Shown: positions 4,190-18,457 of the stretch, piece after piece
Position numbering within the stretch: position 1 is the first letter of the stretch
Layout of the letters: the number at the start of each line of letters is the position of its first letter
Notes under the pieces: model-generated
Database searches by the model: none
What the model was told of the DNA's origin: nothing
What the model saw: only the letters and a program-made list of their open reading frames with translations
Origin: an uncultured virus (IMG/VR IMGVR_UViG_3300035698_022433)
Taxonomy: Duplodnaviria; Heunggongvirae; Uroviricota; Caudoviricetes
Reading direction: 5' to 3' (one strand)
Virus record (IMG/VR): IMGVR_UViG_3300035698_022433
DNA: 20,000 nucleotides
Made by a program: the position numbers and the translations under genes

Positions 4190-4315
4190 GCCAACGTACC
4201 CAAGTTAGGACGACGGGGCCAGACTTAAGTGTTTATTTTAAGGGTTATACTCAAATCCTATCGGAGATATCTGGTGTGGGTAGCTGCCTCACAGGTTCAA
4301 ATCCTGTCGTTGGCA
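4190..4315 (+). tRNA. trnL: tRNA-Leu(TAA) with 39-nt intron (4230-4268) at 37/38
   Basis: Acceptor GCCAACG/CGTTGGC; anticodon stem CCAGA/TCTGG; long variable arm; TTCAAAT T-loop; relaxed BHB. Confidence 0.85.
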
Positions 4316-4375
4316 TAAGTTTTGAACATTGATTGTTATATTAATAAAGAAGGTTTGGAAATTGAAAAATGTAAT

Positions 4376-4456
4376 GCCAACGTAGTCAAGTGGTCTAAGA
4401 CGACGGGTTTAGGACCCGTGCGTAGGCAATCGTCGGTTCAAATCCGTCCGTTGGCA
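4376..4456 (+). tRNA. trnL: tRNA-Leu(TAG)
   Basis: Cloverleaf; ACGGG-TT TAG GA-CCCGT. Confidence 0.92.
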
Positions 4457-4599
4457 CTATGAAAATAAAACAAACCTAAGATGAGCAACGGGAAGTTGCG
4501 TGTCTTAGGAAATGTATATGCGTAGACATAGTGGAAAAAAGTATTATGCAAGAAAGTTCAATCAACAAAGACGAAAATTGGTTAAAGAAATAAACAAAA

Positions 4600-4685
4600 G
4601 CAGGAGTGGCAGAGTGGTCTATCGTCACGGGGTGCTAACCCGATGAATCATTGAGATTGCGTCCGTTCGAATCGGACCTCCTGCG
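4600..4685 (+). tRNA. trnS: tRNA-Ser(GCT)
   Basis: GCAGGAG/CTCCTGC acceptor, G73, long variable arm. Confidence 0.88.
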
Positions 4686-4688
4686 TAG

Positions 4689-5363
4689 GTGAATATCATG
4701 CGTCAATGGCGAAGATATAAAAGTACATATCGGATAAAGCATCCACAGTATTACATTAAAGGAAAACGCAACCTCACTCGTCAAGAGGAACGCACTCTCT
4801 TTGGTGGTACAGTTACTGTTACTGAGAAGATGGATGGTGCCAACACTGGTCTATTCAAAAAGAACGACAAGATGTTCCTACAAAAACGCGGCAGCCTCGT
4901 CGACGATAGTCATCCACAATTTAAGTTCTTCAAAAATCAATGGTTTTGGGACAACTACGAAAAGCTCGAACAACTCCCCGACAACGCAGTAACGTATGGT
5001 GAATTAATGCGCTGCACTCACACAATCCACTACGACAAACTCCCGGATTGGTGGTTGGTCTTTGATATCTACGATTTACAAAAACATCAATATCTTCCTT
5101 GGCATGAAGTAGCAAGAATCTGTTACGACATTGGATTGTCAACTGTACCACACATATTCACTGGTAGTTGTATGGACAGACCGACGATATCAGAAATAAT
5201 GCCAATTGAATCTATATACGGCAACAGGGCAGAAGGAATAGTAGTAAAGAATTACAAAAAACAAATGAGAGGAAAAGTAGTTCATCCCGAATTTATAAAA
5301 GACCCTAGTTTCGATAAACATTGGTCTAGCAGAACTGCAACATTTAATAAATTGGAGAGGTGA
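4689..5363 (+). CDS. RNA ligase family protein (Rnl2-like adenylation domain)
   Basis: TEKMDGAN, YGEL, FDI and EGIVVK motifs; start could be ATG 4698 after GGTGA. Confidence 0.85.
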   Translation: MNIMRQWRRYKSTYRIKHPQYYIKGKRNLTRQEERTLFGGTVTVTEKMDGANTGLFKKNDKMFLQKRGSLVDDSHPQFKFFKNQWFWDNYEKLEQLPDNAVTYGELMRCTHTIHYDKLPDWWLVFDIYDLQKHQYLPWHEVARICYDIGLSTVPHIFTGSCMDRPTISEIMPIESIYGNRAEGIVVKNYKKQMRGKVVHPEFIKDPSFDKHWSSRTATFNKLER

Positions 5364-5444
5364 CCGAGCACGGTTTATGGTGGGCGCCTTGAGAGCGTCA
5401 GTGTAGTAAAAGCTACACCAGCGGTTCAAATCCGCTTCTCTCCG
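5354..5444 (+). tRNA. trnS: tRNA-Ser(TGA)
   Basis: GGAGAGG/TCTCTCC acceptor; GGCGC-CT TGA GA-GCGTC; long variable arm. Confidence 0.92.
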
Positions 5445-5445
5445 T

Positions 5446-5757
5446 ATGAAAAACCAAAACAGAGCAAAGTTCAGAGAATCCGTATTCAAACGGGACAATA
5501 ACAAATGTGTAGTTTGTTCTGAGAAAGCAGTTGATGCGCATCATTTAATTGAAAGACGATTATGGAAAGAACCATCTGAACAAGGCGGATACATAGTAGA
5601 TAATGGAGTATCACTTTGTTCACAACATCATATAGATGCAGAAAAAAATATCATATTACCAAAAACACTGAGAGAATATGCTGGTATAAAGAAGATAGTT
5701 TTACCATTAGGTTTTGATGAAACAAAGGAATATAATAAATGGGGAAAACTTATTTAA
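5446..5757 (+). CDS. HNH endonuclease
   Basis: RDxxxCxxC...DAHH...NGVSLCxxHH. Confidence 0.85.
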   Translation: MKNQNRAKFRESVFKRDNNKCVVCSEKAVDAHHLIERRLWKEPSEQGGYIVDNGVSLCSQHHIDAEKNIILPKTLREYAGIKKIVLPLGFDETKEYNKWGKLI

Positions 5758-5804
5758 GCCCTTTACCATTCTTTTTTATGCTTGGGGGCAACTTGGTTTA
5801 CCAT

Positions 5805-5885
5805 TGACCTGTATGAAAATATGAACCCACATCTATCCCAATATCAAAGGGATGTTCTATTCAATTAAGCTATACCATACAGGTC
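5805..5885 (-). pseudogene. degenerate tRNA-Ile(GAT)-like element
   Basis: Minus strand: acceptor GACCTGT/ACAGGTC+A, D-arm-like TAGCTTAATTGAATAGAAC, TCCC..GAT..GGGA arm, GTGGGTTCA T-arm; 6-nt insertion after the acceptor strand and a weak T-stem. Confidence 0.5.
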
Positions 5886-5892
5886 TACTGGT

Positions 5893-5907
5893 AAAAACAT
5901 TTAAATA
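5893..5907 (+). promoter_or_regulatory. BRE-TATA promoter of SRP RNA (possibly bidirectional)
   Basis: AAAAACA-TTTAAATA ending about 22 nt before 5929. Confidence 0.6.
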
Positions 5908-5928
5908 TACCATTGTCTTTCGCTATTT

Positions 5929-6239
5929 AGATGCAGAATAGACTGGGGAGTTTGGTGTTCCCTTTGCACAAATCGCCAATAGTGGGTCGAATCCAAAGGG
6001 CAGTGTACGACTCCCTTTTGACTTCAACGTTAAACAATGATGATTCGTCCCTCGGAATCTAAGTCGTTGGCTATGTTAAATCGGAAGATTTAATAACCTT
6101 CATTATTAGATAAATCGGGCGAGGCACGGAAGTGAGCAGCCTTAATCTAAACTATAGGTGTTCAAGGGTCTGCGGATTTGAGAATAGTGCTGATTATCAA
6201 TTGGATAGTACGATATTCACCTGCGGAGTTTCTGCGTCT
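5929..6239 (+). ncRNA. ffs: archaeal-type signal recognition particle (7S) RNA, about 311 nt
   Basis: Terminal helix AGATGCAGAA/TTCTGCGTCT; Alu-domain helices with complementary loops TTGGTG/CGCCAA; helix 6 with GGAA loop (6069-6098); helix 8 AGG-CAC-GGAA-GTG-AGCA SRP54-binding motif (loop 6128-6131). Confidence 0.88.
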
Positions 6240-6284
6240 TTATAGTAAGGAAAACTTTTAATAAACTAAGTCCTATATCTGTTT

Positions 6285-6410
6285 ATGAAAAAACGAACCG
6301 AGTGCGAAGTCTATTCCCGAGTTGTTGGTTATCTTCGTCCTGTTAATCAATGGAACCGCGGGAAACAACAAGAATTTAAGGATAGAAAGGCTTTTAGAAT
6401 AAAAAAGTAA
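6285..6410 (+). CDS. stand-alone NrdD C-terminal glycyl-radical domain mini-protein (41 aa)
   Basis: MKKRTECEVYSRVVGYLRPVNQWNRGKQQEFKDRK carries the class III RNR RVxGY glycyl-radical motif; TATA-like TTTTAATA at 6256-6263. Confidence 0.85.
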   Translation: MKKRTECEVYSRVVGYLRPVNQWNRGKQQEFKDRKAFRIKK

Positions 6411-6440
6411 ATTCCTATGTTTTAAAGTATTAATTATTTA

Positions 6441-6454
6441 GAAAGATTTATATA
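6441..6454 (+). promoter_or_regulatory. BRE-TATA promoter
   Basis: GAAAGA-TTTATATA about 25 nt before ATG 6479 (leaderless). Confidence 0.6.
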
Positions 6455-6478
6455 TTACTATATGTATATTGTTTATAA

Positions 6479-6661
6479 ATGAAAAGTAGTAATGTATATT
6501 TGATATTTCTAGTAGCATGTATTATTCAGTATATAACGTTAGTAACAAGTTTTGTGCAAAGTACAGATTATTATACTACAGTAGCACGTATAGGAATAAC
6601 AAGTGTGTTAATGGGAGTTAGTGTATATTTTCATATAACGAGAAAAAGCATTGGTGATTAA
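6479..6661 (+). CDS. small membrane protein (2 TM)
   Basis: Two hydrophobic segments. Confidence 0.55.
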   Translation: MKSSNVYLIFLVACIIQYITLVTSFVQSTDYYTTVARIGITSVLMGVSVYFHITRKSIGD

Positions 6662-7312
6662 ATGAATGAAAAGTATAACATTGAAGGATTAGCTAAAGTT
6701 GCAAAAAAAATTGTGTCATCTTGCGCACAACATATGCCAATGATACATTTAGTATCAAAGGACAATGAAGTAACTATTTGTGGACTTGGTTTTGATAGTG
6801 ATGAAGCAAAACATAAAATGTTAGATATGTTTAGGAAAAAAGTACAAGACGAAAAGATACCTCATTATTTTGTAATTATAGAAGGATGGCTCGGCAACAA
6901 TGTTCACATTCGGCCAAGCCGCGACTTTGAAAGAAGAGAAGCATTAATCATTTGTGAATTCAAAGATACAATGGAACGTAAAACAATCATAATGCCGTTT
7001 ACTAAAGAAGACAAAAAAATAATATGGGAAGAAGAAATATCACTTGTTGATTCAGAACAATATAACATGTGGGACTTCTATCGCGAAGACGTATCAGCTG
7101 AAATGCATGAGAAACACCGCAGAGAAGCTTTGTTAAAAGAGTTTAGAGAAACAGATGTTAAAGATGCTTGGGATAAAACAATTGAGCAATATAAAAAAGA
7201 AACTGGTAAAGACCTACCACCAAGCTTTAATATAAAAAGGACAAGGGAAACGATTGAAAGGATGATTAATGAAGGTAGGGTTTCAAAGAGAGTTAACAGG
7301 ATAGATAAATGA
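6662..7312 (+). CDS. hypothetical protein (216 aa)
   Basis: GGTGA SD; long ORF. Confidence 0.7.
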   Translation: MNEKYNIEGLAKVAKKIVSSCAQHMPMIHLVSKDNEVTICGLGFDSDEAKHKMLDMFRKKVQDEKIPHYFVIIEGWLGNNVHIRPSRDFERREALIICEFKDTMERKTIIMPFTKEDKKIIWEEEISLVDSEQYNMWDFYREDVSAEMHEKHRREALLKEFRETDVKDAWDKTIEQYKKETGKDLPPSFNIKRTRETIERMINEGRVSKRVNRIDK

Positions 7313-7363
7313 AAGTTGAAGACGGAGTTGTAATAGTAGGACGAAGAGAACTTAAAGAGATAA

Positions 7364-7576
7364 ATGATGAACACAGAAATCGATATCCCTGATTGGTTAA
7401 TACAGTTGAATCAATATGATACTGTTATCTTTTTCATAATGTCAATTGTTGGTGTGTTTTTAATCATACATAGTTTGCGAATGAAATGTTCTGAGTGTGG
7501 ATTTGTCGTGTTCTTAACAGGTTGTAGTGCATTAATACTTGGTGGAATTGGCCTAATAATCTTTAGTTTAGAGTAA
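7364..7576 (+). CDS. small membrane protein (2 TM)
   Basis: Two hydrophobic segments flanking CSEC. Confidence 0.55.
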   Translation: MMNTEIDIPDWLIQLNQYDTVIFFIMSIVGVFLIIHSLRMKCSECGFVVFLTGCSALILGGIGLIIFSLE

Positions 7577-7589
7577 TAATTAGACCATA

Positions 7590-7602
7590 GAAAGTTATAT
7601 AA
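7590..7602 (+). promoter_or_regulatory. BRE-TATA promoter of the main tRNA cluster
   Basis: GAAAG-TTATATAA. Confidence 0.55.
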
Positions 7603-7812
7603 ACCTCTAATTACATATTATTTATTATCCAGTGTTCTATTTATCTGGGTTAGTGATATTATGTCTATATGTCAACCGCGACAACATTGGCAGAAAATGC
7701 CTTACATTTTTAATAGAATAGTCGCGGGAACGGATGTAGAGACAACCGAATAATTTTTGGGGCCTTTCTCAGACGGTAGTCGAAGGGTCTCTTTTCTATT
7801 AAATTTTTTGTT

Positions 7813-7883
7813 GCCGGTATAGCACAATGGCAGTGCGGGGAGCCTGTAACTCTCTGATGGGTGTTCGACTCGCTCTATCGGCT
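7813..7883 (+). tRNA. trnT: tRNA-Thr(TGT)
   Basis: GCCGGTA/TATCGGC acceptor, U73; GGGAG-CC TGT AA-CTCTC. Confidence 0.85.
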
Positions 7884-7971
7884 TAAGTGGAATAACGACT
7901 TAGAGGGACGTTATCGACGTTCGCAATATCTAACATATTATATACTATGTTTGTATACCAAATGTGAAACA

Positions 7972-8388
7972 GTGACTAAATACAAAATAATAAGAATGAA
8001 AGATGGAACAAGAAAAAGAGAACATAGATTAATTATGGAAGAGCATTTAGGAAGAAAATTAAGAAAAAATGAAATTGTTCATCACAAAAATGGAAATACT
8101 TTGGATAACAGGATAGAAAATCTTGATTTACTTACTTCGTCAGAACATGGAAGGAAACATTATAAACAAAATGATGTGTATAAATTTAACAAAAAAGATA
8201 TAAAAAGAGGAGCTACTACGTCAAATATAAAAAGACGTGTAAAGTGTACTGGTGATTATTATCAATGTTCTATGTGCAAAAAAATGATACACAAAAGCAA
8301 GTTTAATACAAAGAAATGGCGGTGGAATGGTTTGCAAACAATATGTAAAGTATGTACAAAAAAATACTATAAGAAATATTATAGATAA
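7972..8388 (+). CDS. HNH homing endonuclease with C-terminal Zn finger
   Basis: [14 protein letters not shown]...[16 protein letters not shown]; two CxxC pairs; start moved to GTG 7972 because the track start lies inside tRNA-Thr. Confidence 0.85.
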
Positions 8389-8389
8389 C

Positions 8390-8462
8390 GCGCTTGTACG
8401 ATAATCTGGCAGTCTTACACCCTTCCAAGGTGAAAGTGAGTGTTCGAATCACTCCTGGCGCA
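8390..8462 (+). tRNA. trnG: tRNA-Gly(TCC)
   Basis: GCG...CGC+A acceptor; CACC-CT TCC AA-GGTG. Confidence 0.85.
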
Positions 8463-8587
8463 TCAGCGGTAGCTTAGCCTGGTAAAGCTCTAAATACTCT
8501 AAACGCTTATCTCCTTAACGGGCAGTACAGTTAAGAGTTACTTCGACTTGTAATCGAGAGACCTGGGTTCGAATCCCAGCCGTTGAT
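8463..8587 (+). ncRNA. tRNA-Thr(TGT)-like RNA with a ~50-nt Y-RNA-like stem inserted between D and anticodon arms
   Basis: Acceptor TCAGCGG/CCGTTGA, full D-arm, TCGA-CT TGT AA-TCGA, perfect T-arm; insert ACTCTAAACGCTTATCTC...GCAGTACAGTTAAGAGTTACTTC. Confidence 0.7.
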
Positions 8588-8590
8588 TTT

Positions 8591-8712
8591 GCAGGGGCAA
8601 CATAAACTCTATACGTTTATCTCTGGAAACAGCAGTGTAGTAGAGAGTTACTTCGGTAAAAAACAAATCTGTAAAATTTGTCTAAGGGAGTTCGAACCTC
8701 CCACCCCCTGCA
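8591..8712 (+). ncRNA. tRNA-Tyr(GTA)-like RNA whose D-arm is replaced by the same Y-RNA-like stem
   Basis: Acceptor GCAGGGG/CCCCTGC+A; CAAAT-CT GTA AA-ATTTG; GGGAG-TTCGAAC-CTCCC; insert AACTCTATACGTTTATCTC...GCAGTGTAGTAGAGAGTTACTTC. Confidence 0.65.
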
Positions 8713-8716
8713 AAAT

Positions 8717-8788
8717 AGTCCCATAGGATAATGGAAGTCCGCCTGGCTTTGAACCAGGCAGAGGTCGGTTCAACTCCGCCTGGGACTG
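8717..8788 (+). tRNA. trnQ: tRNA-Gln(TTG)
   Basis: AGTCCCA/TGGGACT (A1:U72 as in archaeal Gln); CCTGG-CT TTG AA-CCAGG. Confidence 0.9.
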
Positions 8789-8864
8789 TGTGCCGTAGTC
8801 TAGCACGGAGGCAGGCAACGGGCTCATAACCCGTGGTACGAAAGTTCAAATCTTTCCGGCGCAA
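8789..8864 (+). tRNA. trnM: tRNA-Met(CAT), initiator-like
   Basis: Three consecutive G:C pairs in the anticodon stem (ACGGG-CT CAT AA-CCCGT); first pair is U:A rather than A:U. Confidence 0.8.
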
Positions 8865-8868
8865 TCTT

Positions 8869-8941
8869 GGGGACGTGGTCTAATTGGAATGATAGCGGTG
8901 TTGCATACCGTTGACTGCTGGTTCGAATCCTGCCGTCTCCA
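8869..8941 (+). tRNA. trnA: tRNA-Ala(TGC)
   Basis: G3:U70 identity pair; TGC anticodon. Confidence 0.9.
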
Positions 8942-9017
8942 CTGGTAGCTAAACAAAAAATTAGTTGTATGCTGTGTTCACAGCTTGAACATACAAACTG
9001 ATTATTAGCTACTCTAT

Positions 9018-9088
9018 GCTTTCGTGTTTCAACGGTAGAATACCAGGCTGTCTACTTGGTGATTCGGGTTCGATTCCCGGCGAGGGCG
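9018..9088 (+). tRNA. trnD: tRNA-Asp(GTC)
   Basis: Cloverleaf; G73; CCAGG-CT GTC TA-CTTGG. Confidence 0.9.
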
Positions 9089-9137
9089 TATGTTGGAAGA
9101 GAAACGTAGCAGGACTTACGACCTGCATAAACATAGT

Positions 9138-9229
9138 ACTCCTGTAGTGTAGTGGACAATCATGTCTGGCTTTCAAATCTCATTAAATGAAGAGACCAGG
9201 CGACGTGGGTTCAATTCCCGCCAGGAGTG
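9138..9229 (+). tRNA. trnE: tRNA-Glu(TTC) with 19-nt BHB intron (9176-9194)
   Basis: CTTT/GAAG central helix with two 3-nt bulges. Confidence 0.88.
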
Positions 9230-9261
9230 TCGCACTGAAAAGTGCAATAGGTGAAAGAGCC

Positions 9262-9582
9262 ATGAAAGAAAAATACATAGCGGTCTTAGAAGATCGAGAA
9301 GAAGAAAGAGTCCTTAAAACAGAGGATGGAAAAGAAGTTGAAATAAAATACGAACATTACCCAAGCGTTGTCGGACCACGAAGTGTTTACACTGGTCTTC
9401 CTATTTGGGTTGGAAAAACTGAAGCAAACGGTTGCTTAGACGGCGGAACATCAATTGATGTTGAAGCGCGTTGCTGGACACATGAACCATATTCATATAG
9501 TCAAGCGCGCGTGGTATCAACTGGTCGTCTATTAAAACAACTTGGACTTCCAACAAAACTAGCAGAACAAGTAAAGGATTAA
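9262..9582 (+). CDS. hypothetical protein (106 aa)
   Basis: AGGTGA SD before ATG 9262; the track start overlaps tRNA-Glu. Confidence 0.65.
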   Translation: MKEKYIAVLEDREEERVLKTEDGKEVEIKYEHYPSVVGPRSVYTGLPIWVGKTEANGCLDGGTSIDVEARCWTHEPYSYSQARVVSTGRLLKQLGLPTKLAEQVKD

Positions 9583-9595
9583 ATCCTTTACTTAT

Positions 9596-9669
9596 GGGTT
9601 CGTAGAACAATCTGGGAGTTCGCCGTCTTGAAGGGGCGGATGTTGTAGTTTCAAATACTACCGAACCCA
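9596..9669 (+). tRNA. trnF: tRNA-Phe(GAA)
   Basis: GGGTTCG/CGAACCC acceptor; CCGTC-TT GAA GG-GGCGG. Confidence 0.85.
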
Positions 9670-9673
9670 CTAC

Positions 9674-9765
9674 ACCCATGTATTCTAGTCCGGTTAAGAA
9701 GGCACCCTTACAAACCAATTGGTTAAGATAGGTGTTTATCAGCGGTTCAAATCCGCTCATGGGTA
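9674..9765 (+). tRNA. trnV: tRNA-Val(TAC) with 17-nt BHB intron (9713-9729)
   Basis: Textbook BHB: CTTA/TAAG helix, 3-nt bulges, ACC/GGT outer helix. Confidence 0.92.
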
Positions 9766-9767
9766 CT

Positions 9768-9983
9768 ATGTCAAAGACATACAAATTAATTCAATACAAA
9801 AACGGTCAACCTATATACAGTAGACATCTCAGAAGAGATGCACCATATCAATGGTTCAGAAAAGACCATCCACTTGCACGAAGAGCATACTACAAATCAT
9901 TTAGAATGAAGCAGAAGCAATATCTTAAGAAGTTCAATGATTGCATTAAATTTGTAAGAACTAATGGTTGGTTAACCCATTAA
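9768..9983 (+). CDS. small basic hypothetical protein (71 aa)
   Basis: ATG 2 nt after tRNA-Val; K/R/Y-rich. Confidence 0.6.
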   Translation: MSKTYKLIQYKNGQPIYSRHLRRDAPYQWFRKDHPLARRAYYKSFRMKQKQYLKKFNDCIKFVRTNGWLTH

Positions 9984-9984
9984 T

Positions 9985-10073
9985 GATTCCGTGGTCGAAT
10001 TGGTAAGGCATTGGGCTGCAACATAAAAAATGCGGATACCCAAAGACTGAGTGTTCAAATCACTCCGGAATCT
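9985..10073 (+). tRNA. trnC: tRNA-Cys(GCA) with 16-nt BHB intron (10022-10037)
   Basis: U73; CTGC/GCGG central helix. Confidence 0.88.
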
Positions 10074-10074
10074 T

Positions 10075-10149
10075 GAGCCTGTAGTTCAGCTAGGTCAGAA
10101 TACCGGACTCTTAATCCGTAGGTCGCGAGTTCAAATCTTGCCAGGCTCA
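10075..10149 (+). tRNA. trnK: tRNA-Lys(CTT)
   Basis: Cloverleaf; CT CTT AA loop. Confidence 0.92.
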
Positions 10150-10151
10150 CT

Positions 10152-10225
10152 GAATGGGTAGCGTAGCTAGGTCACGCGTTCGGCTTTTAACCGGATACAG
10201 GCGGGTTCAAATCCTGTCCCATTCA
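10152..10225 (+). tRNA. trnK: tRNA-Lys(TTT)
   Basis: Cloverleaf; CT TTT AA loop. Confidence 0.9.
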
Positions 10226-10231
10226 CTAATT

Positions 10232-10416
10232 GGGGCCATATCCCAGTGGTCTAAGGAGCCTGGCTCATATCAGCAAGATGGCAAATTCCCGATGGAGCGT
10301 ACAAAAAACAGTAAGCCTGGTTTGGTAAGTCGTCGTGGCAAACCTCTCCAACGCGCAACGAAAGCCATCCGCTGGGGGAAACCAGGTATTCGCAGGTTCG
10401 AATCCAGCTGGCCCCA
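10232..10416 (+). tRNA. tRNA(CAT), elongator Met or Ile2, with 111-nt intron (10270-10380)
   Basis: GGGGCCA/TGGCCCC+A; CCTGG/CCAGG anticodon stem; near-BHB with CAGC/GCTG outer helix. Confidence 0.82.
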
Positions 10417-10419
10417 CTA

Positions 10420-11064
10420 ATGAAAATATGCGCAATGTCGGATTTACACCGACACCAAATAGATATTCCAAAATGCGATGTATTAGCGATAGCAGGCGAC
10501 ATCAGTGGATTTGATGATGCCAAATGGTTTGGTGAAATCTTTCTTCCATACTTAAAAGAACAAAAAAATAAATACGACATTTGTCTTCTTGTCTTTGGAA
10601 ACCACGATGATATGATACATGCCGCGAATGTTTCTTTTCCGCTTGCTTCAGATTATGTAAAAATTCTTACCAACAAGGAATTTACATATAAGGGTGTAAA
10701 ATTCTTTGGTTCACCATACTGCAAATACTCAGAAAAAATAGTTGACAGCATCAATGCATTCGAGGAACCATTCCTCAAAACGTTATTCAATGACATTCCG
10801 GAAGACACCGATGTACTAATCACTCATTCACCACCATATGGATTTGGTGATACTGTAATAAATCAATCATACCATCTTGGCAGTACATCACTTACAGAAC
10901 GAGTTCGAATAGTAAAACCAAAAATTCATATCTTTGGTCACATTCATACAGGTAAAAAATATACAAAAGAGAATGGCACAAGCTATTACAATGTATCAAT
11001 ATTAAATGATAATTATGAACTAACATACAAACCAACAATAATCAATTATGTAACAGCCACATAG
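10420..11064 (+). CDS. calcineurin-like metallophosphoesterase
   Basis: SDLH, AGD, GNHD, THSPP and GHIH motifs. Confidence 0.92.
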   Translation: MKICAMSDLHRHQIDIPKCDVLAIAGDISGFDDAKWFGEIFLPYLKEQKNKYDICLLVFGNHDDMIHAANVSFPLASDYVKILTNKEFTYKGVKFFGSPYCKYSEKIVDSINAFEEPFLKTLFNDIPEDTDVLITHSPPYGFGDTVINQSYHLGSTSLTERVRIVKPKIHIFGHIHTGKKYTKENGTSYYNVSILNDNYELTYKPTIINYVTAT

Positions 11065-11134
11065 GTCCGTGGTCGATTGGTAATGATACCCTCCTGATAA
11101 GTGGGAGAAGAGAGTTCGATTCTCTCCGGACCTA
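11063..11134 (+). tRNA. trnI: tRNA-Ile(GAT)
   Basis: AGGTCCG/CGGACCT+A; CT GAT AA loop. Confidence 0.88.
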
Positions 11135-11136
11135 CT

Positions 11137-12015
11137 ATGATGAAAAAGTATTATTGTAATTACTGTTGTGAATGGATAGAATGTAAAAATGGAAAATCTT
11201 TTGGTGGTCATAAATCAAATTGCAAAGATAATCCAATAAGAGAAGAAAAGAATAAAAAGATAAGTGAAGCAAATAAACGGAACCATCCAAAAAAAGCTTA
11301 CAAATTAATTTGCAAAAAGTGTAAAAAACAATATACAATTGAAATGACAGAGTATGTCTATGGTAACAATAAATATAGGAAACATTGTTCAAGAAAATGT
11401 GCGAACTCACATGTTCAGTCTTTAACACAAAATAATGCTAGAAGAAAAAAACTACTTGGACGAAACACACATGTTGTTGTATTCATAACAAGAGAATGTA
11501 AAATTTGTAAAACATTGTTTGTTGTCAGAAAAGGTAATGATAGAAAGTGTTGCACAAGAAGTTGCTCAGTAAAGTATGCAATGTATGTTGCACAAAAAAG
11601 AAGAAATTTATCATGGTCTGAAATTCATTTAAAATCATTTAAAAATGGTAGAAAACCAACTGGTAAATATTATGTAGAGTGGTTTACTTACGGCCACATT
11701 AAAGTTCAAGGTACTTATGAACTTCGTACGTGTTATATTTTAGATGCTATGAAAGAAATGGGAGAAATAACAGATTGGAAATACACGTTTGACAGATTCC
11801 CATATATTGGTTTTGATGGAAGAGAACATAGTTATTTTCCAGATTTTAAAGTATTTGGAAATGATACATATTATATTGAAGTTAAGGGTTTATTAAACGA
11901 TATTGATAAGGTTAAATGGAAATCAGTTAGAGACAATGAATACAGATTAGAAGTTTGGGATTTAGATGTAATAAAAAATAATGAAAGCTGTTATGGAATA
12001 ACCACCTGTCCTTAG
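11137..12015 (+). CDS. Zn-finger plus PD-(D/E)XK (TnsA-like) putative homing endonuclease
   Basis: Repeated CxxC...CSxxC modules; YFPDF...YIEVKG; true start ATG 11137. Confidence 0.8.
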   Translation: MMKKYYCNYCCEWIECKNGKSFGGHKSNCKDNPIREEKNKKISEANKRNHPKKAYKLICKKCKKQYTIEMTEYVYGNNKYRKHCSRKCANSHVQSLTQNNARRKKLLGRNTHVVVFITRECKICKTLFVVRKGNDRKCCTRSCSVKYAMYVAQKRRNLSWSEIHLKSFKNGRKPTGKYYVEWFTYGHIKVQGTYELRTCYILDAMKEMGEITDWKYTFDRFPYIGFDGREHSYFPDFKVFGNDTYYIEVKGLLNDIDKVKWKSVRDNEYRLEVWDLDVIKNNESCYGITTCP

Positions 12016-12077
12016 TGTTAACAGAAGCACATCGAGCTGTAGACTCGAAAGAATCGGCGCAAATCCGGTAGGACAGA
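12006..12077 (+). tRNA. trnY: tRNA-Tyr(GTA), archaeal type
   Basis: C1:G72, A73, short variable loop; TCGAG-CT GTA GA-CTCGA; atypical T-loop CGCAAAT. Confidence 0.88.
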
Positions 12078-12079
12078 CT

Positions 12080-12715
12080 ATGAAAATAAGTATGTGGATA
12101 CCTGAAACAAAAAATCCTGTTTGGGTACAGGACTTCATAAATATCGAAATGATACAAGCAGGAAATATAAAGTCAAAAACTACAAGAGAATCTGTAGTTG
12201 ATGGTCTGTATATTGCACAAAGACTTGCAAAACCTGGAATGTGTGTTTACGTAGAAGGAAGAGACTGTGATTTGGATACTTATCGAGGAAAAGAGTTTAA
12301 GTATCACTGCGGAAGAGAGTTTATCACACCAGAAAAGGAAAATGATTACACCTAACTACTCGTATGCTTTGATGCCAATGACCTCTATATAGGTGAATTC
12401 AATGGAAGAGATATCCACGAGCTATATCATAAAAATTCAAACGTAGCACGAAAACATGATGCTGGAGGACAGTCTCAACGTCGATTTGAAAGAGGACGAG
12501 ATGAGTCGTTAAAACATTGGTTCAAAGAAATAGTTGGTTTGGTTAACGATTACAAAAATAGAAGGCCAATATATCTTGGATGTAATGGTATGTACAAAAA
12601 TAGAATAAAAATCAAAGACGTAGTCTTTACAAAAAGTGTATCCATAGACGATAATTGTCTATGGGAGTTAATGGAGGTATCAAGAAATGTTCAAACCGAA
12701 AAGATTGAAGGCTAA
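12080..12715 (+). CDS. prf1: aRF1/eRF1 peptide chain release factor homolog (N+M domains) with in-frame TAA at 12353-12355
   Basis: NIKS (12164-12175) and YHCGREF (YxCxxxF) before the stop; same frame after it gives RKHDAGGQSQRRFER (GGQ 12464-12472). Confidence 0.88.
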
Positions 12716-13130
12716 AGATGCAAAATACTGTACAAATTGTATAGATGAAGAATTAGAGCCACATGTAAAGAGAATAGACTTTGCAATGAAGACCAGAACG
12801 TTTATCATAGACTTTTGGTTTTGTCCTGAATGTGGTGCAACGTACTACTTCAAGGATTGGACTAGTATAGTTGAAAAGAATGAAGTACCAATGAGCGGTC
12901 ATAAAATGTTGAATAAGGAAACTGGAAAATACGAACATATCACTGACCCAAAAAACCTACCGGCAACTAGCTGGGCAGAAACGATGGTATGTGCTGGAGA
13001 CGAGAAAAGATTGGAAGCTCTTTGGGAAAAACGTGGAGCTGAAAAAGAAGCAGTACTGAAGGAGTTGGAGAAGACAGGTAAGTGGGATGTTGAAGAGTAT
13101 TACAAAGTAAAGAAAAGAATGGGCTTGTAG
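12687..13130 (+). CDS. hypothetical Zn-ribbon protein
   Basis: CTNC and CPECG; GGAGGT SD. Confidence 0.65.
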   Translation: MFKPKRLKAKDAKYCTNCIDEELEPHVKRIDFAMKTRTFIIDFWFCPECGATYYFKDWTSIVEKNEVPMSGHKMLNKETGKYEHITDPKNLPATSWAETMVCAGDEKRLEALWEKRGAEKEAVLKELEKTGKWDVEEYYKVKKRMGL

Positions 13131-13193
13131 CACAATCGGAAATGCGATGGCCTTCGAAGCCATAGACTGGGCGTTCGAGTCGCCCCAGGCCCG
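13121..13193 (+). tRNA. trnR: tRNA-Arg(TCG)
   Basis: ATGGC-CT TCG AA-GCCAT. Confidence 0.9.
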
Positions 13194-13194
13194 T

Positions 13195-13314
13195 ATGAAA
13201 AGATTCGTATGTGAAATAACATGTCCTGTTTGCAAACAAGATTTCATAATGACAGGACCAGAAAGAATTTGTCTTCAATGCAGGAATAAAATAAAAAATG
13301 GGAACATGGTGTAA
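13195..13314 (+). CDS. 39-aa Zn-ribbon mini-protein
   Basis: MKRFVCEITCPVCKQDFIMTGPERICLQCRNK: two CxxC pairs filling the gap between two tRNAs. Confidence 0.55.
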   Translation: MKRFVCEITCPVCKQDFIMTGPERICLQCRNKIKNGNMV

Positions 13315-13373
13315 TAGGCAACATATCTGCCTCCAGAGCAGAAGACTTGTGAGTTCGATTCTTACTGTTCCCT
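13300..13373 (+). tRNA. trnW: tRNA-Trp(CCA)
   Basis: TCTGC-CT CCA GA-GCAGA; no intron. Confidence 0.88.
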
Positions 13374-13376
13374 TAT

Positions 13377-13449
13377 GGGCTTGTGGTGTAACTTGGTATC
13401 ACCGGGGTTTTGGATACCTCAAATTCAGGTTCAAATCCTGGCTAGCCCA
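13377..13449 (+). tRNA. trnP: tRNA-Pro(TGG)
   Basis: GGGGT-TT TGG AT-ACCTC. Confidence 0.86.
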
Positions 13450-13451
13450 CT

Positions 13452-13874
13452 ATGCAAACACAAAAATTTCAAATAAAACCGATAGAGGATATAATAAGAG
13501 ATTATTCAGCGCTAAAGAAAATATATCCTTTAAAAATGGAAGTGATAGTGATAACTAGAAACAAATACGATTATAGTTTTACTCCATTGTTAGAACTTGA
13601 CTTTGATGATATCACAAGTGAATACAGATCGACTGAAACAATATCAATTAACAAAGAACATATTAAAAAAATTAAAGAAAAGATTCCAGAAATTAAAGCT
13701 GCTGATACTGTATTTGTATGTTGTGATGCTGGACTATCTCGCAGCCCAGCAGTGGCGAAAGCATTATCACACTATCTACATGACATTCAATCATTCAATT
13801 ACTTAGCATACAGATATCCATTTGCAAACAAAGATGTGTTCGAAACACTCCTAATTGGATTAAAGGAAGGATAG
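13452..13874 (+). CDS. CX5R (tyrosine/dual-specificity-like) phosphatase
   Basis: CDAGLSRSPAVA P-loop. Confidence 0.8.
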   Translation: MQTQKFQIKPIEDIIRDYSALKKIYPLKMEVIVITRNKYDYSFTPLLELDFDDITSEYRSTETISINKEHIKKIKEKIPEIKAADTVFVCCDAGLSRSPAVAKALSHYLHDIQSFNYLAYRYPFANKDVFETLLIGLKEG

Positions 13875-13940
13875 CTGAGTCTGGCCTAAAGCATCGGACT
13901 GTTAATCCGATGATCGTCGGTTCAAATCCGACTCCTTCCG
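13865..13940 (+). tRNA. trnN: tRNA-Asn(GTT)
   Basis: TCGGA-CT GTT AA-TCCGA; G73. Confidence 0.92.
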
Positions 13941-13942
13941 CT

Positions 13943-14039
13943 GCGATAGTAGTTTAGTGGTCTAGAATTCCAGACTGTGAAAAATCATAACATGATTTGC
14001 AGAACTCTGGAGACCCGAGTTCGAATCTCGGCTATCGCC
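13943..14039 (+). tRNA. trnH: tRNA-His(GTG) with 24-nt BHB intron (13981-14004)
   Basis: C73; CTGT/GCAG helix, AAATCAT/ATGATTT outer helix; G-1 not encoded. Confidence 0.9.
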
Positions 14040-14043
14040 CTTT

Positions 14044-14116
14044 GGGTGTATAGTATAATCGGATAGAATAATGGACTTCTAATCCATAGATGCGGGTTCG
14101 ATTCCTGCTACGCCCG
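14044..14116 (+). tRNA. trnR: tRNA-Arg(TCT)
   Basis: ATGGA-CT TCT AA-TCCAT. Confidence 0.9.
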
Positions 14117-14141
14117 TTCTACCAAAGTATTAAAAATAGAT

Positions 14142-14154
14142 AAAGATTTATATA
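14142..14154 (+). promoter_or_regulatory. BRE-TATA promoter
   Basis: AAAGA-TTTATATA about 22 nt before GTG 14176; near copy of the 6441 promoter. Confidence 0.6.
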
Positions 14155-14175
14155 CTACTAATTTTATTACATCTT

Positions 14176-14469
14176 GTGAAGTTTTATATTAAACCATCAT
14201 GGATTAGAATTCGTAAGGATAAAACGGAAAAGAAAGAACAATGGAATATCTATTTACAGAGAATAAAGATAAAAGAATCACTATATAATAAGAATCCTGT
14301 GTATTGCACTGTTATAGGAGGAACAATTAAATGGAATGGAACAAGTAAAAAATATCTCTTTGCTCCAACCAATGATACTTCTTTTGATTATAAAGGATTA
14401 AAAAAGATTGTGCTTTTTATGGAAGTAGAAGGAAAAAGAAAAAAGTATAATATTAAAGATGGTGATTAA
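14176..14469 (+). CDS. hypothetical protein
   Basis: Leaderless GTG start after TATA. Confidence 0.6.
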   Translation: MKFYIKPSWIRIRKDKTEKKEQWNIYLQRIKIKESLYNKNPVYCTVIGGTIKWNGTSKKYLFAPTNDTSFDYKGLKKIVLFMEVEGKRKKYNIKDGD

Positions 14470-14781
14470 ACGAAATTAATAGAAATAGAAAATGGTAAAA
14501 TAACAGAATTACTATGCTATATATGCGAACGCGAGTTCAATACAAACCAAGGCAGATTTCCAGTCGGCGGACCACAACAACATCATCAGCCACCAAAGCA
14601 ATATCACAAACGAAAAAACTACGAAGAAAAGACAATTAATGTATGTCAAAGTTGCCAACGTCAAATTCATGCATTATTTGAAAACAAAGAATTAAAATCA
14701 ATAACCGTTCAACAATTAAGAAATCACCAAGCAATCAAAAAATGGATTAAATGGATAAATAAGGGTAGGAATATGAAATGA
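14470..14781 (+). CDS. small HNH-like protein (103 aa) with ACG at the start position
   Basis: CYIC...HH.PPK...CQSCQRQIHALFENKEL...WIKW; GGTGATTAA precedes ACG; not in ORF track. Confidence 0.65.
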   Translation, partial: TKLIEIENGKITELLCYICEREFNTNQGRFPVGGPQQHHQPPKQYHKRKNYEEKTINVCQSCQRQIHALFENKELKSITVQQLRNHQAIKKWIKWINKGRNMK

Positions 14782-14990
14782 AAAAAAGACGTAATTTTTT
14801 AATAATACGCGAAGGAAAAGAAAGAGAGCGTGCAATAAACATCAATGATATTTCGTATTTGAGTAAAGTAGAAGGTGGAACAAAAATCTATACATGTGAT
14901 GGAACAAATTTTGAGATTGAAGAAAGCATTGAAGAAATTCTTAGTGTAATCAATGGCAGGAAAGGAAAACGAGATGAAAAGACGACGTAA
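14778..14990 (+). CDS. FlbD-like small protein, tandem copy 1
   Basis: MKKRRNFL...ININDI...TKIYT.DG..F.IEESIEEIL. Confidence 0.65.
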   Translation: MKKRRNFLIIREGKERERAININDISYLSKVEGGTKIYTCDGTNFEIEESIEEILSVINGRKGKRDEKTT

Positions 14991-15168
14991 TTTTCTTTTG
15001 ATATCAATAGGCGATGGACATGATAGGGCTTTAAATATTAACAATATAACAGTTGTAAAAAAAAATGAAAATGGCACAAGAATTATTACGGCTTGTGACA
15101 ACAGTTATAATGTTGAGGAAAGTTATGAAGAAGTACTTAATATGATTATTGGTAAGGAAGAGAAATGA
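14974..15168 (+). CDS. FlbD-like small protein, tandem copy 2
   Basis: MKRRRNFL...LNINNI...YNVEESYEEVL; start set by homology to the other copies. Confidence 0.65.
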   Translation: MKRRRNFLLISIGDGHDRALNINNITVVKKNENGTRIITACDNSYNVEESYEEVLNMIIGKEEK

Positions 15169-15368
15169 AAAAACGACGTAACTTTTTAATATTTGATGAT
15201 AAGACTAAAACAGTTATAAACATAAGCAACATAACATGTATGAGAGAATATAGTGGAAGAACAAAATTTTATATGACTGATGACAGTAGCTACGATGTTG
15301 AAGAGAAATTAGAAGATGTTCTTAACGCAATTTTCGGTAAGGTGAAAAAACGTGAAAAAACGCCGTAA
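15165..15368 (+). CDS. FlbD-like small protein, tandem copy 3
   Basis: MKKRRNFL...INISNI...YDVEEKLEDVL. Confidence 0.65.
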   Translation: MKKRRNFLIFDDKTKTVINISNITCMREYSGRTKFYMTDDSSYDVEEKLEDVLNAIFGKVKKREKTP

Positions 15369-17623: not shown

Positions 17624-18457
17624 ATGAATCGATTCGAGGAACTAAAGAAAGTGATTGCAAACAAACAATCGCACTATACATCGTACAATATCAAAAAACG
17701 CAGCGGCGGCAACCGCCGTATCACAACTCCGGATAAGTTTCTAAAGCGAATACAACAAGAAATACTTTTTGACATTCTTGACTTTGTTGATATAGATAAG
17801 CATGCTATGGGTTTTGTCAAAGGCCGCGGCATCTACACAAATGCAAAGAAACATCTCAACTCCGCTTGTATCGTAAAACTTGATTTAAAAGATTTCTTTC
17901 CATCTATTAAGAAAGAAATGATAATAAAATCACTTGAGGGAAAGGTCAGCGCACCACATGCCATTGCCGAACTGACAACAATAAACAATTCTTTACCACA
18001 GGGAGCACCAACCAGTCCGTGTCTTTCAAATATTGTTTGTATTGAACTCGATAAGAAATTAACAAACCTTGCGGCAAAGTTTCATGCACGATATACTCGT
18101 TACGCCGATGACATCACGTTCAGTAGCAAAACAAATAAACAATTAGATAAAATCATTCCGAAAACACATTCATTTGTTCTGCACCAAGGTTTTGATATCA
18201 ATTATAAGAAGACACAAGTAATGCGCCGCGGTGGTCGCCAAACAGTAACCGGACTTACCGTTAATGATGCTGTTAATGTTCCGCGAACACGTGTTAGAAA
18301 CTTACGTGCTGAAATACACAAAAAGAAATATACAGGCATATCACTTGACGAACGCGGTCGTCTCGCTGGTGTTTCATCATTCATTTATGGCGCAAACAAA
18401 AAGAAAGGTCAAAAATTCTATGATGACCTTGATAAGCTTCCAATACTTAAACGGTGA
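17624..18457 (+). CDS. retron-type reverse transcriptase (277 aa)
   Basis: KKRSGGNR, NAKKH (region X), DLKDFFPSI, LPQGAPTSP, YADD, VTG (region Y). Confidence 0.93.
   Translation: MNRFEELKKVIANKQSHYTSYNIKKRSGGNRRITTPDKFLKRIQQEILFDILDFVDIDKHAMGFVKGRGIYTNAKKHLNSACIVKLDLKDFFPSIKKEMIIKSLEGKVSAPHAIAELTTINNSLPQGAPTSPCLSNIVCIELDKKLTNLAAKFHARYTRYADDITFSSKTNKQLDKIIPKTHSFVLHQGFDINYKKTQVMRRGGRQTVTGLTVNDAVNVPRTRVRNLRAEIHKKKYTGISLDERGRLAGVSSFIYGANKKKGQKFYDDLDKLPILKR

Follow-up and report, generated by a model that had tools for sequence, protein, structure and literature searches.

Why should the stop codons of protein genes lie inside the tRNA genes that follow them? The question is raised by a 20,000-nt stretch of DNA from an uncultured virus (IMG/VR record IMGVR_UViG_3300035698_022433), referred to here as the window. 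Its + strand carries, at 4190–14116, an array of about 26–27 co-oriented tRNAs, of which at least six contain introns; about 15 protein genes and a signal recognition particle (SRP) RNA lie among them (ARAGORN, Rfam and our table of gene junctions). A first-pass annotation of the window had noted stop codons inside six of these tRNAs and proposed that translation and tRNA maturation compete there, possibly as a timer, with simple genome compaction as the alternative. We find that the overlaps on the stop side look like a neutral by-product of close packing, and that it is the start side of the arrangement, where genes begin 2–4 nt past the 3′ ends of tRNAs, that appears constrained. The reading we favor, with a probability of roughly 0.65, is that of a tRNA-punctuated polycistronic array resembling those of mitochondria, in which cleavage by RNase Z would produce leaderless mRNAs and stops within tRNAs represent tolerated compaction, not a timer.

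All six overlaps are present in the sequence, and in four of them the stop codon coincides with tRNA positions 8–10. An RNA ligase gene (4698–5363, +; Pfam RNA_ligase, E = 6.7e-29), led by an AGGTGA Shine-Dalgarno (SD) motif 5 nt upstream, ends with the TGA at 5361–5363 in tRNA-Ser(tga) (5354–5444, +). The gene for a 292-aa zinc-finger and nuclease-like protein (11137–12015, +; phrog_945 endonuclease, E = 4.6e-7; 43 homologues), whose ATG lies 3 nt past tRNA-Ile(gat) (11063–11134, +), ends with the TAG at 12013–12015 in tRNA-Tyr(gta) (12006–12077, +). A 147-aa gene with a GGAGGT SD motif (12687–13130, +) ends with the TAG at 13128–13130 in tRNA-Arg(tcg) (13121–13193, +), and the gene for a 140-aa phosphatase-like protein with a CX5R motif (13452–13874, +; phrog_5614, E = 5e-15), which starts 3 nt past tRNA-Pro, ends with the TAG at 13872–13874 in tRNA-Asn(gtt) (13865–13940, +). 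In the two remaining cases, the TAG at 11062–11064 of a metallophosphoesterase gene (10420–11064, +; Pfam Metallophos, E = 4.1e-12), whose ATG lies 4 nt past a tRNA with a 111-nt intron (10232–10416), overlaps tRNA-Ile by 2 nt, while the TAA at 13312–13314 of a 39-aa zinc-ribbon gene (13195–13314, +), which begins 2 nt past tRNA-Arg, occupies positions 13–15 of tRNA-Trp (13300–13373, +), itself separated by 3 nt from tRNA-Pro (13377–13449, +).

If position 0 denotes the base preceding tRNA position 1, the nine junctions with a protein gene directly 5′ of a tRNA have stops that begin at positions 8, 8, 8, 8, 13, 0, −3, −3 and −15. The entire stop codon falls within the tRNA for five open reading frames (ORFs; positions 8, 8, 8, 8 and 13), the sixth overlaps by 2 nt, and at eight of the nine junctions there is either an overlap or a spacer of at most 1 nt. 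No functional relation links the genes that stop at position 8, whose products are the ligase, the nuclease-like 292-aa protein, the 147-aa orphan and the phosphatase-like 140-aa protein. The ligase is supported as a real protein by its family match, and the 140-aa and 292-aa proteins by their homologues; the 147-aa ORF has no homologue. For all 41 genes counted, stop codons are complete in the DNA (19 TAA, 13 TGA and 9 TAG). An altered genetic code was ruled out, as all three stop codons are in use elsewhere in the window, and so was completion of stops by polyadenylation, since the overlapped stops lie 7–15 nt past the site cut by ribonuclease P (RNase P).

Detection of the tRNAs depends on the settings used. 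ARAGORN finds 19 in the window, or 26 once introns are allowed; the Rfam covariance model (RF00005, gathering cut-off 29 bits) finds 20 by default and, with permissive filters, three more above the cut-off, at 12006–12077 (44.7 bits), 4190–4315 and 10232–10416. ARAGORN places the starts of tRNA-Ser (5353) and tRNA-Arg (13120) 1 nt early: true position 1 is 5354 from acceptor pairing in the former, and 13121 from Rfam and acceptor pairing in the latter. Among the tRNAs with stops at positions 8–10, tRNA-Asn (70.7 bits), tRNA-Arg (62.9 bits) and tRNA-Tyr pass the RF00005 cut-off, the last of these having an unusual T-loop and being missed both by ARAGORN and by Rfam with default filters. The class II tRNA-Ser(tga), in which A10 turns U8-G9-A10 into TGA, has no Rfam hit and is backed by ARAGORN and by its cloverleaf fold (z = −3.7). 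Scores for tRNA-Ile, tRNA-Trp and tRNA-Pro are 57.8, 58.6 and 51.1 bits. The seven-pair acceptor stem is kept in the predicted fold of all six overlapped tRNAs, and a full cloverleaf was obtained for Ser, Tyr, Asn and Trp.

Several less regular features of the same tRNA region may be recorded here. Contigs from two DNA sequencing runs join position 10268 to 10380, within the tRNA at 10232–10416 (+), which indicates that these samples also contain, at the DNA level, a version of this tRNA that lacks the intron, in a host or in a related virus. Two adjacent tRNA-like genes (8463–8588 and 8590–8711, both +) have good acceptor stems and low scores (23.9 and 26.6 bits), and a similar insert interrupts each of them away from the canonical intron site (ctctaaacgcttatctcc and ctctatacgtttatctct, respectively); the two may be tRNAs whose introns are unusual. 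A putative, very basic 44-aa ORF (4512–4646, +) overlaps tRNA-Ser(gct) by 47 nt and terminates at positions 45–47 of that tRNA, and the most variable region among contigs of the DNA runs (4541–4615) lies within it.

Do the stops within tRNAs exceed what random reading frames would produce? They do not. Frames at the nine gene-to-tRNA junctions are distributed 4:4:1 (chi-square p = 0.37), and position 8 carries the stop in 4 of 6 overlapping junctions against an expected one third (P = 0.10). The tRNAs themselves offer frequent opportunities for termination, with TAG or TGA at positions 8–10 in 14 of 26. When tRNAs are read with codons beginning at positions 2, 5 and 8, the first stop is at position 8 in 13 of 25; the median first stop on reading into a tRNA is at position 19 in the frame 1, 4, 7 and at position 51 in the frame 3, 6, 9. 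The four ORFs in this last frame all retain their own stops at the tRNA border (beginning at 0, −3, −3 and −15). ORFs in the early-stop frames thus use a stop provided by the tRNA and those in the third frame keep their own, which is the pattern expected if spacers had shrunk under the need for a nearby stop.

A background rate from independent arrays gave the same answer. The comparison set consisted of 21 IMG/VR loci of the 292-aa protein family, with 247 + strand tRNAs and 55 gene-to-tRNA junctions, six near-duplicate loci (L248, L252, L256, L261, L264 and L272) having been dropped. Position 8 is the commonest stop position in these arrays (7 of 55 junctions), and its share of overlapping junctions, 7 of 23, is the frame-random third (probability of at least 7 under a rate of 1/3, 0.69). 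A 206-kb virus, G001, has three position-8 stops among 27 tRNAs, and the pooled figure is 14 of 34 overlapping junctions (P = 0.21). Relatives of the metallophosphoesterase (39 distant loci with 43 tRNAs) show no position-8 stop, in a sample too small to use. As for the 292-aa family itself, 26 of its 27 IMG/VR loci (L246–L272), on contigs of 26–52% GC, have a co-oriented tRNA no more than 400 nt away, and its stop falls inside the next tRNA in L247/L248, L250, L257 and L258; it looks like a nuclease family specialized for tRNA arrays.

Conservation of the overlaps among relatives, judged by C-terminal tails, was likewise not seen. Ligase homologues end within 1–3 residues of the same point, with differing terminal residues. 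For the 140-aa protein, which has 24 homologues, the tRNA-encoded KEG tail is shared by none of the 22 homologues in an alignment of 23 rows (itself included), and the two closest (P0002 and P0003, 79–81% identity) extend 5–9 residues further. The TTCP tail of the 292-aa protein, to which homologue P0028 is 60% identical, is shared by none of 15 aligned homologues, and a homologue search with the 147-aa ORF returned only that ORF. Among homologues of the 140-aa protein, short tails recur after a variable linker, …NFQ in five (P0005 and P0007–P0010) and …GK(F/L)V in two (P0002 and P0003); a tRNA 5′ end could encode a GKLV tail if translated in the frame with a stop at positions 13–15.

Searches for the junctions themselves yielded little. 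IMG/VR scans for the ligase junction in DNA matched either identical short contigs (L003 and L004) or relatives at ≤48% identity without the junction, and ligase relatives at 44–48% identity have no tRNA 3′ of the ligase. Single-protein IMG/VR scans with the 292-aa, 140-aa and 388-aa proteins found no relatives; an alignment-based IMG/VR scan with the 140-aa family gave matches of ≤55% over short best segments and no close relatives. A tblastn search of a phage collection with the 140-aa and 292-aa proteins had no match, nor had a megablast search of that collection with positions 4300–14200, and a sample of 401 Thermoplasmatota genomes contained one distant homologue (G321) with no tRNA nearby. 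The 140-aa and 292-aa proteins each have a homologue on a single 11,764-bp contig, which carries P0008 and P0031. Contigs from four DNA runs have no listed difference at the four junctions and are uninformative on conservation.

The 3′ ends of the tRNAs follow a much stricter rule. An ATG is found at +2 to +4 past the discriminator base of 10 of 26 tRNAs, compared with 2.1 expected (P = 1.7e-5; reached in 0 of 20,000 random placements), and nine of the 26 have TATG at +1 or +2 (P = 4e-11). Eight of the ten ATGs open ORFs of 39–292 aa, each occupying the whole interval before the tRNA or gene that follows, and an ATG at +2 to +4 is present at 8 of 11 tRNA-to-gene junctions. Besides the genes already described, these include an HNH gene (5446–5757, +; Pfam, phrog_24030) starting 2 nt past tRNA-Ser, where the discriminator G is followed by TATG; a 71-aa gene (9768–9983, +) whose ATG lies 3 nt past an intron-containing tRNA-Val and whose stop ends 1 nt before an intron-containing tRNA-Cys; and a 91-aa gene (12080–12355, +) starting 3 nt past tRNA-Tyr, where the discriminator A is followed by CTATG. 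None of the eight tRNA-abutting genes has an SD-like motif. A match of at least 5 nt to AGGTGAT or GGAGGT, 3–8 nt upstream, precedes 12 other genes, three of which lie inside the array and are not flush with a tRNA (4698, 9262 and 12687).

The starts of four tRNA-abutting genes agree with profile starts or with the N-termini of homologues; for instance, phrog_24030 aligns from residue 1 of the HNH ORF, which supports the start at 5446. Starts of this kind are also enriched relative to the 21 comparison arrays (8 of 26 tRNAs here versus 5 of 247; Fisher p = 2e-6). An IMG/VR pattern scan for a T-loop followed by CTATG gave one match per contig in all but one, and no multi-junction relative among the matches listed. 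The scattered spacing on the stop side is as expected for neutral packing, whereas the fixed spacing on the start side is as expected under constraint. Full-text literature searches aimed at this arrangement yielded no account of tRNA-abutting leaderless genes in archaea or their viruses; in the Thermococcus kodakarensis transcriptome, a tRNA is co-transcribed in an mRNA 5′ untranslated region, and RNase Z release of a snoRNA has been proposed (PMC4247193).

How might such an array be expressed? Between 7810 and 14116 (+; 6.3 kb), the coding strand has no run of five or more T residues, compared with 5.8 expected, and only 3 of 2000 shuffled sequences reach zero; this segment is a candidate single transcription unit. 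Together with the use of one strand and nine tRNA-tRNA spacers of 0–6 nt, the absence of such runs leads us to infer that the array is transcribed as long precursors. CCA is encoded in none of the 26 tRNAs, so all of them need an endonucleolytic 3′ cut and CCA addition and should be RNase Z substrates. RNase Z cuts 3′ of the discriminator, and at the abutting genes this would leave an mRNA that starts with (C)UAUG, its AUG 2–4 nt from the cut. Archaeal ribosomes initiate on leaderless mRNAs and could do so on those made in this way.

On the stop side, RNase P acting at position 1 of the following tRNA would deprive five genes of their stop codons. These could then terminate normally only on precursors with the downstream tRNA uncut, so that one precursor could not be at the same time a stop-bearing mRNA and the source of a 5′-matured downstream tRNA. 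Genes in an early-stop frame run into the tRNA and use U8-A9-G10 or U8-G9-A10 (positions 8–10) or a D-loop TAA (positions 13–15), and genes in the third frame, for which the tRNA has no early stop, retain their own stop at the border. The cost is probably small, 2–4 arbitrary C-terminal residues and an occasional stalled ribosome, which would explain why overlaps are tolerated. The first-pass suggestion that tRNA maturation leaves non-stop mRNAs holds as a deduction from the RNase P cut, one already proposed for bacteria; nothing supports the further idea that the resulting competition was selected. We put forward more tentatively, and with somewhat more doubt than belief, that this is true tRNA punctuation, hitherto known from organelles, in an archaeal virus, in which RNase Z makes leaderless mRNAs, RNase P strips the borrowed stop, and each precursor gives a brief burst of protein before it becomes a non-stop mRNA and a mature tRNA.

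One close analogy is with mitochondria, where the tRNA punctuation model has protein genes butt-joined to tRNAs on both sides on one strand, RNase P and RNase Z as the presumed mRNA-releasing enzymes, and mRNAs with little or no leader, as would be the case here. Faure and Barthelemy in 2018 reportedly described stop and start codons at conserved positions of mitochondrial tRNAs. The present case differs in belonging to a virus and not an organelle, in having complete stops 7–15 nt inside the tRNA, which polyadenylation cannot supply, and in the coexistence of SD-led genes in the same array. Another is with the cultured haloarchaeal virus HGTV-1 (NC_021328.1; tRNA cluster at 42.2–53.4 kb), an archaeal tailed virus with 34 tRNAs in its record (Rfam). 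ORFs start 2–6 nt past the tRNA 3′ end at 6 of the 32 HGTV-1 tRNAs analyzed, with N73 followed directly by TATG in three; four of these starts are annotated coding sequence (CDS) starts (gp264, gp271, gp272 and gp265), and for gp281 the annotated start is in frame and lies 12 nt further on. HGTV-1 has a high GC content, no detectable sequence relationship to the window save a 25%-identical ligase, and no annotated CDS stop at tRNA positions 8–10. Since it has the same start-side geometry, this could be a general mode of expression in tRNA-rich archaeal viruses. A term search of a 2026 paper on HGTV-1 tRNAs (PMC13532342) found no mention of leaderless, overlap, polycistronic, RNase P or RNase Z.

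The stop side has precedents of a different kind. In phage T5 (NC_005859.1), too, small ORFs and HNH endonuclease genes are dispersed through an array of co-oriented tRNAs; four annotated CDSs there (hegC, hegD, T5.057 and T5.069) run 6–24 nt into the next tRNA and one more abuts without a spacer. T5 differs in being a phage of bacteria and in the many promoters annotated within its array. By the deposited coordinates, its stops occupy tRNA positions 4–6, 12–14, 21–23 and 22–24 and not 8–10, and no genes start 2–4 nt past tRNAs. In bacterial genomes, same-strand overlaps have been described in which maturation of a tRNA or transfer-messenger RNA (tmRNA), together written t(m)RNA, is predicted to cut off the stop of the upstream CDS (Hudson, Lau & Williams 2014, PMC4131195). 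The non-stop deduction is the same, as is the geometry, with the CDS upstream, in the same orientation, and its stop within the tRNA. According to the same study, bacterial cases are uncommon, with 250 CDS-upstream overlaps counted across 115,660 t(m)RNA genes, and are subject to tmRNA rescue, whereas here 5 of 26 tRNAs are affected in an archaeal-type virus, whose hosts lack tmRNA.

Stops within tRNAs are thus ordinary: they occur at a chance rate in other viral arrays, phage T5 has similar overlaps, and their non-stop consequence is already published for bacteria. The part that possibly matters is the start-side rule, a uniform 2–4 nt with no ribosome-binding site, found here and in a cultured haloarchaeal virus. 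The arrangement as a whole appears to be tRNA punctuation of a new variety. If RNase Z does make such leaderless mRNAs, tRNA punctuation would be not an organelle oddity but a mode of expression in archaeal viruses that ties viral protein output to tRNA processing.

Other explanations have to be set against this one. Under the timer reading of the first-pass annotation, RNase P maturation and termination exclude each other as a selected regulatory competition that times or caps expression of the interleaved genes, perhaps with a viral release factor. Mutual exclusion does follow from the geometry, the density of ORFs overlapping a tRNA by at least 3 nt (five among 26 tRNAs) is high beside the bacterial count just given, 4 of 5 eligible tRNAs have their stop triplet in use (P = 0.045), and A10 in tRNA-Ser creates a TGA. 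A timer is nonetheless very unlikely in the face of random frames, a rate in other viral arrays that is the same one third of overlapping junctions, tails that relatives do not conserve, and overlapped genes without functional relation. The suggested link to a release factor of the element's own also failed to materialize, as none was found among the 32 ORFs of the 20-kb window scanned against Pfam; the 388-aa ORF has no significant sequence match in PDB, and no solved release factor was matched. Compaction, which the first-pass annotation had offered as the alternative, fits best, the overlaps being essentially neither conserved nor more frequent than chance. It is hardly conceivable, on the other hand, that the overlaps are an artefact of spurious ORFs or tRNA pseudogenes. 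The odd T-loop of tRNA-Tyr and its absence from two default scans, the lack of an Rfam hit for tRNA-Ser(tga) and the lack of homologues for the 147-aa ORF might suggest as much, but tRNA-Asn and tRNA-Arg score among the best in the window, tRNA-Tyr is well above the 29-bit cut-off, and the Pfam match of the ligase and the homologues of the 140-aa and 292-aa proteins (24 and 43) speak for real genes, so that an artefact is largely excluded for three of the four tRNA-gene pairs.

Two further accounts place the cause elsewhere. Selfish endonuclease genes may have inserted at tRNA borders, perhaps as cassettes of nuclease and tRNA, leaving butt joints and shared stops as scars. Three inter-tRNA genes are indeed nuclease-like (HNH, 5446–5757; HNH_3, 7996–8388; and the phrog_945 match at 11137–12015), the 292-aa family keeps to the vicinity of co-oriented tRNAs and repeatedly ends inside the next one, hegC and hegD of T5 overlap tRNAs, and the HGTV-1 array contains HNH and LAGLIDADG genes. 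Five of the eight tRNA-abutting genes, however, are not nuclease-like (metallophosphoesterase, phosphatase-like, zinc-ribbon, and the 71-aa and 91-aa orphans), just one of the four position-8 cases is, and of the three nuclease-like genes 11137–12015 alone overlaps a tRNA. Insertion scars also do not explain the uniform 2–4 nt spacing of starts. Mobile-nuclease insertion explains part of the picture and is unlikely to explain the whole. It is more improbable still that the genes are independent transcription units with separate promoters inside neighboring genes, their mRNAs never being substrates of RNase P or RNase Z and the overlaps being inconsequential. TATA-like AT-rich sequence is frequent at a GC content of 30–40%, the HNH gene at 7996 begins 112 nt past tRNA-Thr with a TATA-like stretch upstream, and many promoters are annotated within the T5 tRNA region; yet nine tRNA-tRNA spacers measure merely 0–6 nt, starts 2–4 nt past a tRNA leave no promoter room outside the tRNA body, and no oligo-T terminator signal occurs across 6.3 kb.

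Several observations weigh against tRNA punctuation with neutral stop-side packing. Per junction, position-8 stops are more frequent in the window (4 of 9) than in the other arrays (7 of 55; Fisher p = 0.04), and a similar excess appears in the four of five ORF-preceded tRNAs that have their stop triplet in use; there may be a weak preference for such stops. Without the unusual A10 of tRNA-Ser, the ligase ORF would extend by 46 codons, and this base could be a co-adaptation with the ligase stop. Three of the nine (C)TATG motifs lead to no real gene (6 codons after Leu-tag, 20 codons after Asp, and tRNA-Pro after Trp), so the motif may belong to the tRNA flank and not to gene starts. The presumed co-transcription draws its support from the missing oligo-T runs and the lack of promoter room. 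Finally, conservation was judged through the protein tails of relatives, and for some of those tails (…GKLV and …NFQ, for example) another tRNA could in turn supply the last codons.

What kind of virus carries this array? We take the window to be a piece of an uncultured archaeal-type virus of low GC content, the hallmarks being an archaeal-type SRP RNA, intron-bearing tRNAs and the lack of encoded CCA. GC content across the 20 kb is 29–42%, long ORFs are nearly all on the + strand, and the sequence was recovered from salt-lake DNA sequencing runs only. The archaeal SRP (7S) RNA is full-length and lies within the viral tRNA region (5931–6237, +; Rfam RF01857, 139.8 bits against a cut-off of 96.5). 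To our knowledge, no virus-encoded SRP RNA has been described. A 24-mer in its helix 8 is identical in four Thermoplasmatota-type assemblies, but the entire RNA is far more diverged from these than they are among themselves, and a Thermoplasmatota host was for that reason not assigned. Pfam matches among the 32 ORFs identify an RNA ligase, a DHH phosphoesterase, two HNH nucleases, a metallophosphoesterase, a radical-SAM protein and a reverse transcriptase. This content is akin to that of HGTV-1, which has RNA ligases, a metallophosphatase, HNH genes and a large tRNA cluster.

A few features of the protein genes deserve mention in their own right. The phrog_24030 'RNA ligase' profile (342 positions) matches two separate ORFs, with positions 1–100 aligning to the HNH ORF (E = 1.6e-30) and positions 142–340 to the ligase ORF (E = 6.8e-20); what elsewhere forms one fused protein, as in HGTV-1 gene 233, is split here into two genes, in reversed order and with tRNA-Ser in between. 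A 41-aa ORF (6285–6410, +) aligns to the anaerobic ribonucleotide reductase family NrdD over its final 33 positions only, corresponding to the glycyl-radical end (Pfam E = 1.6e-11); it could be what is left of a gene, or else a 'spare part' that works by itself. Downstream of the tRNA array, three tandem paralogous ORFs of 67–71 aa (14778–15368, +) have N-termini of MKKRRNFLI or similar, and the reverse transcriptase gene (RVT_1, E = 1.4e-25) is located at 17624–18457 (+).

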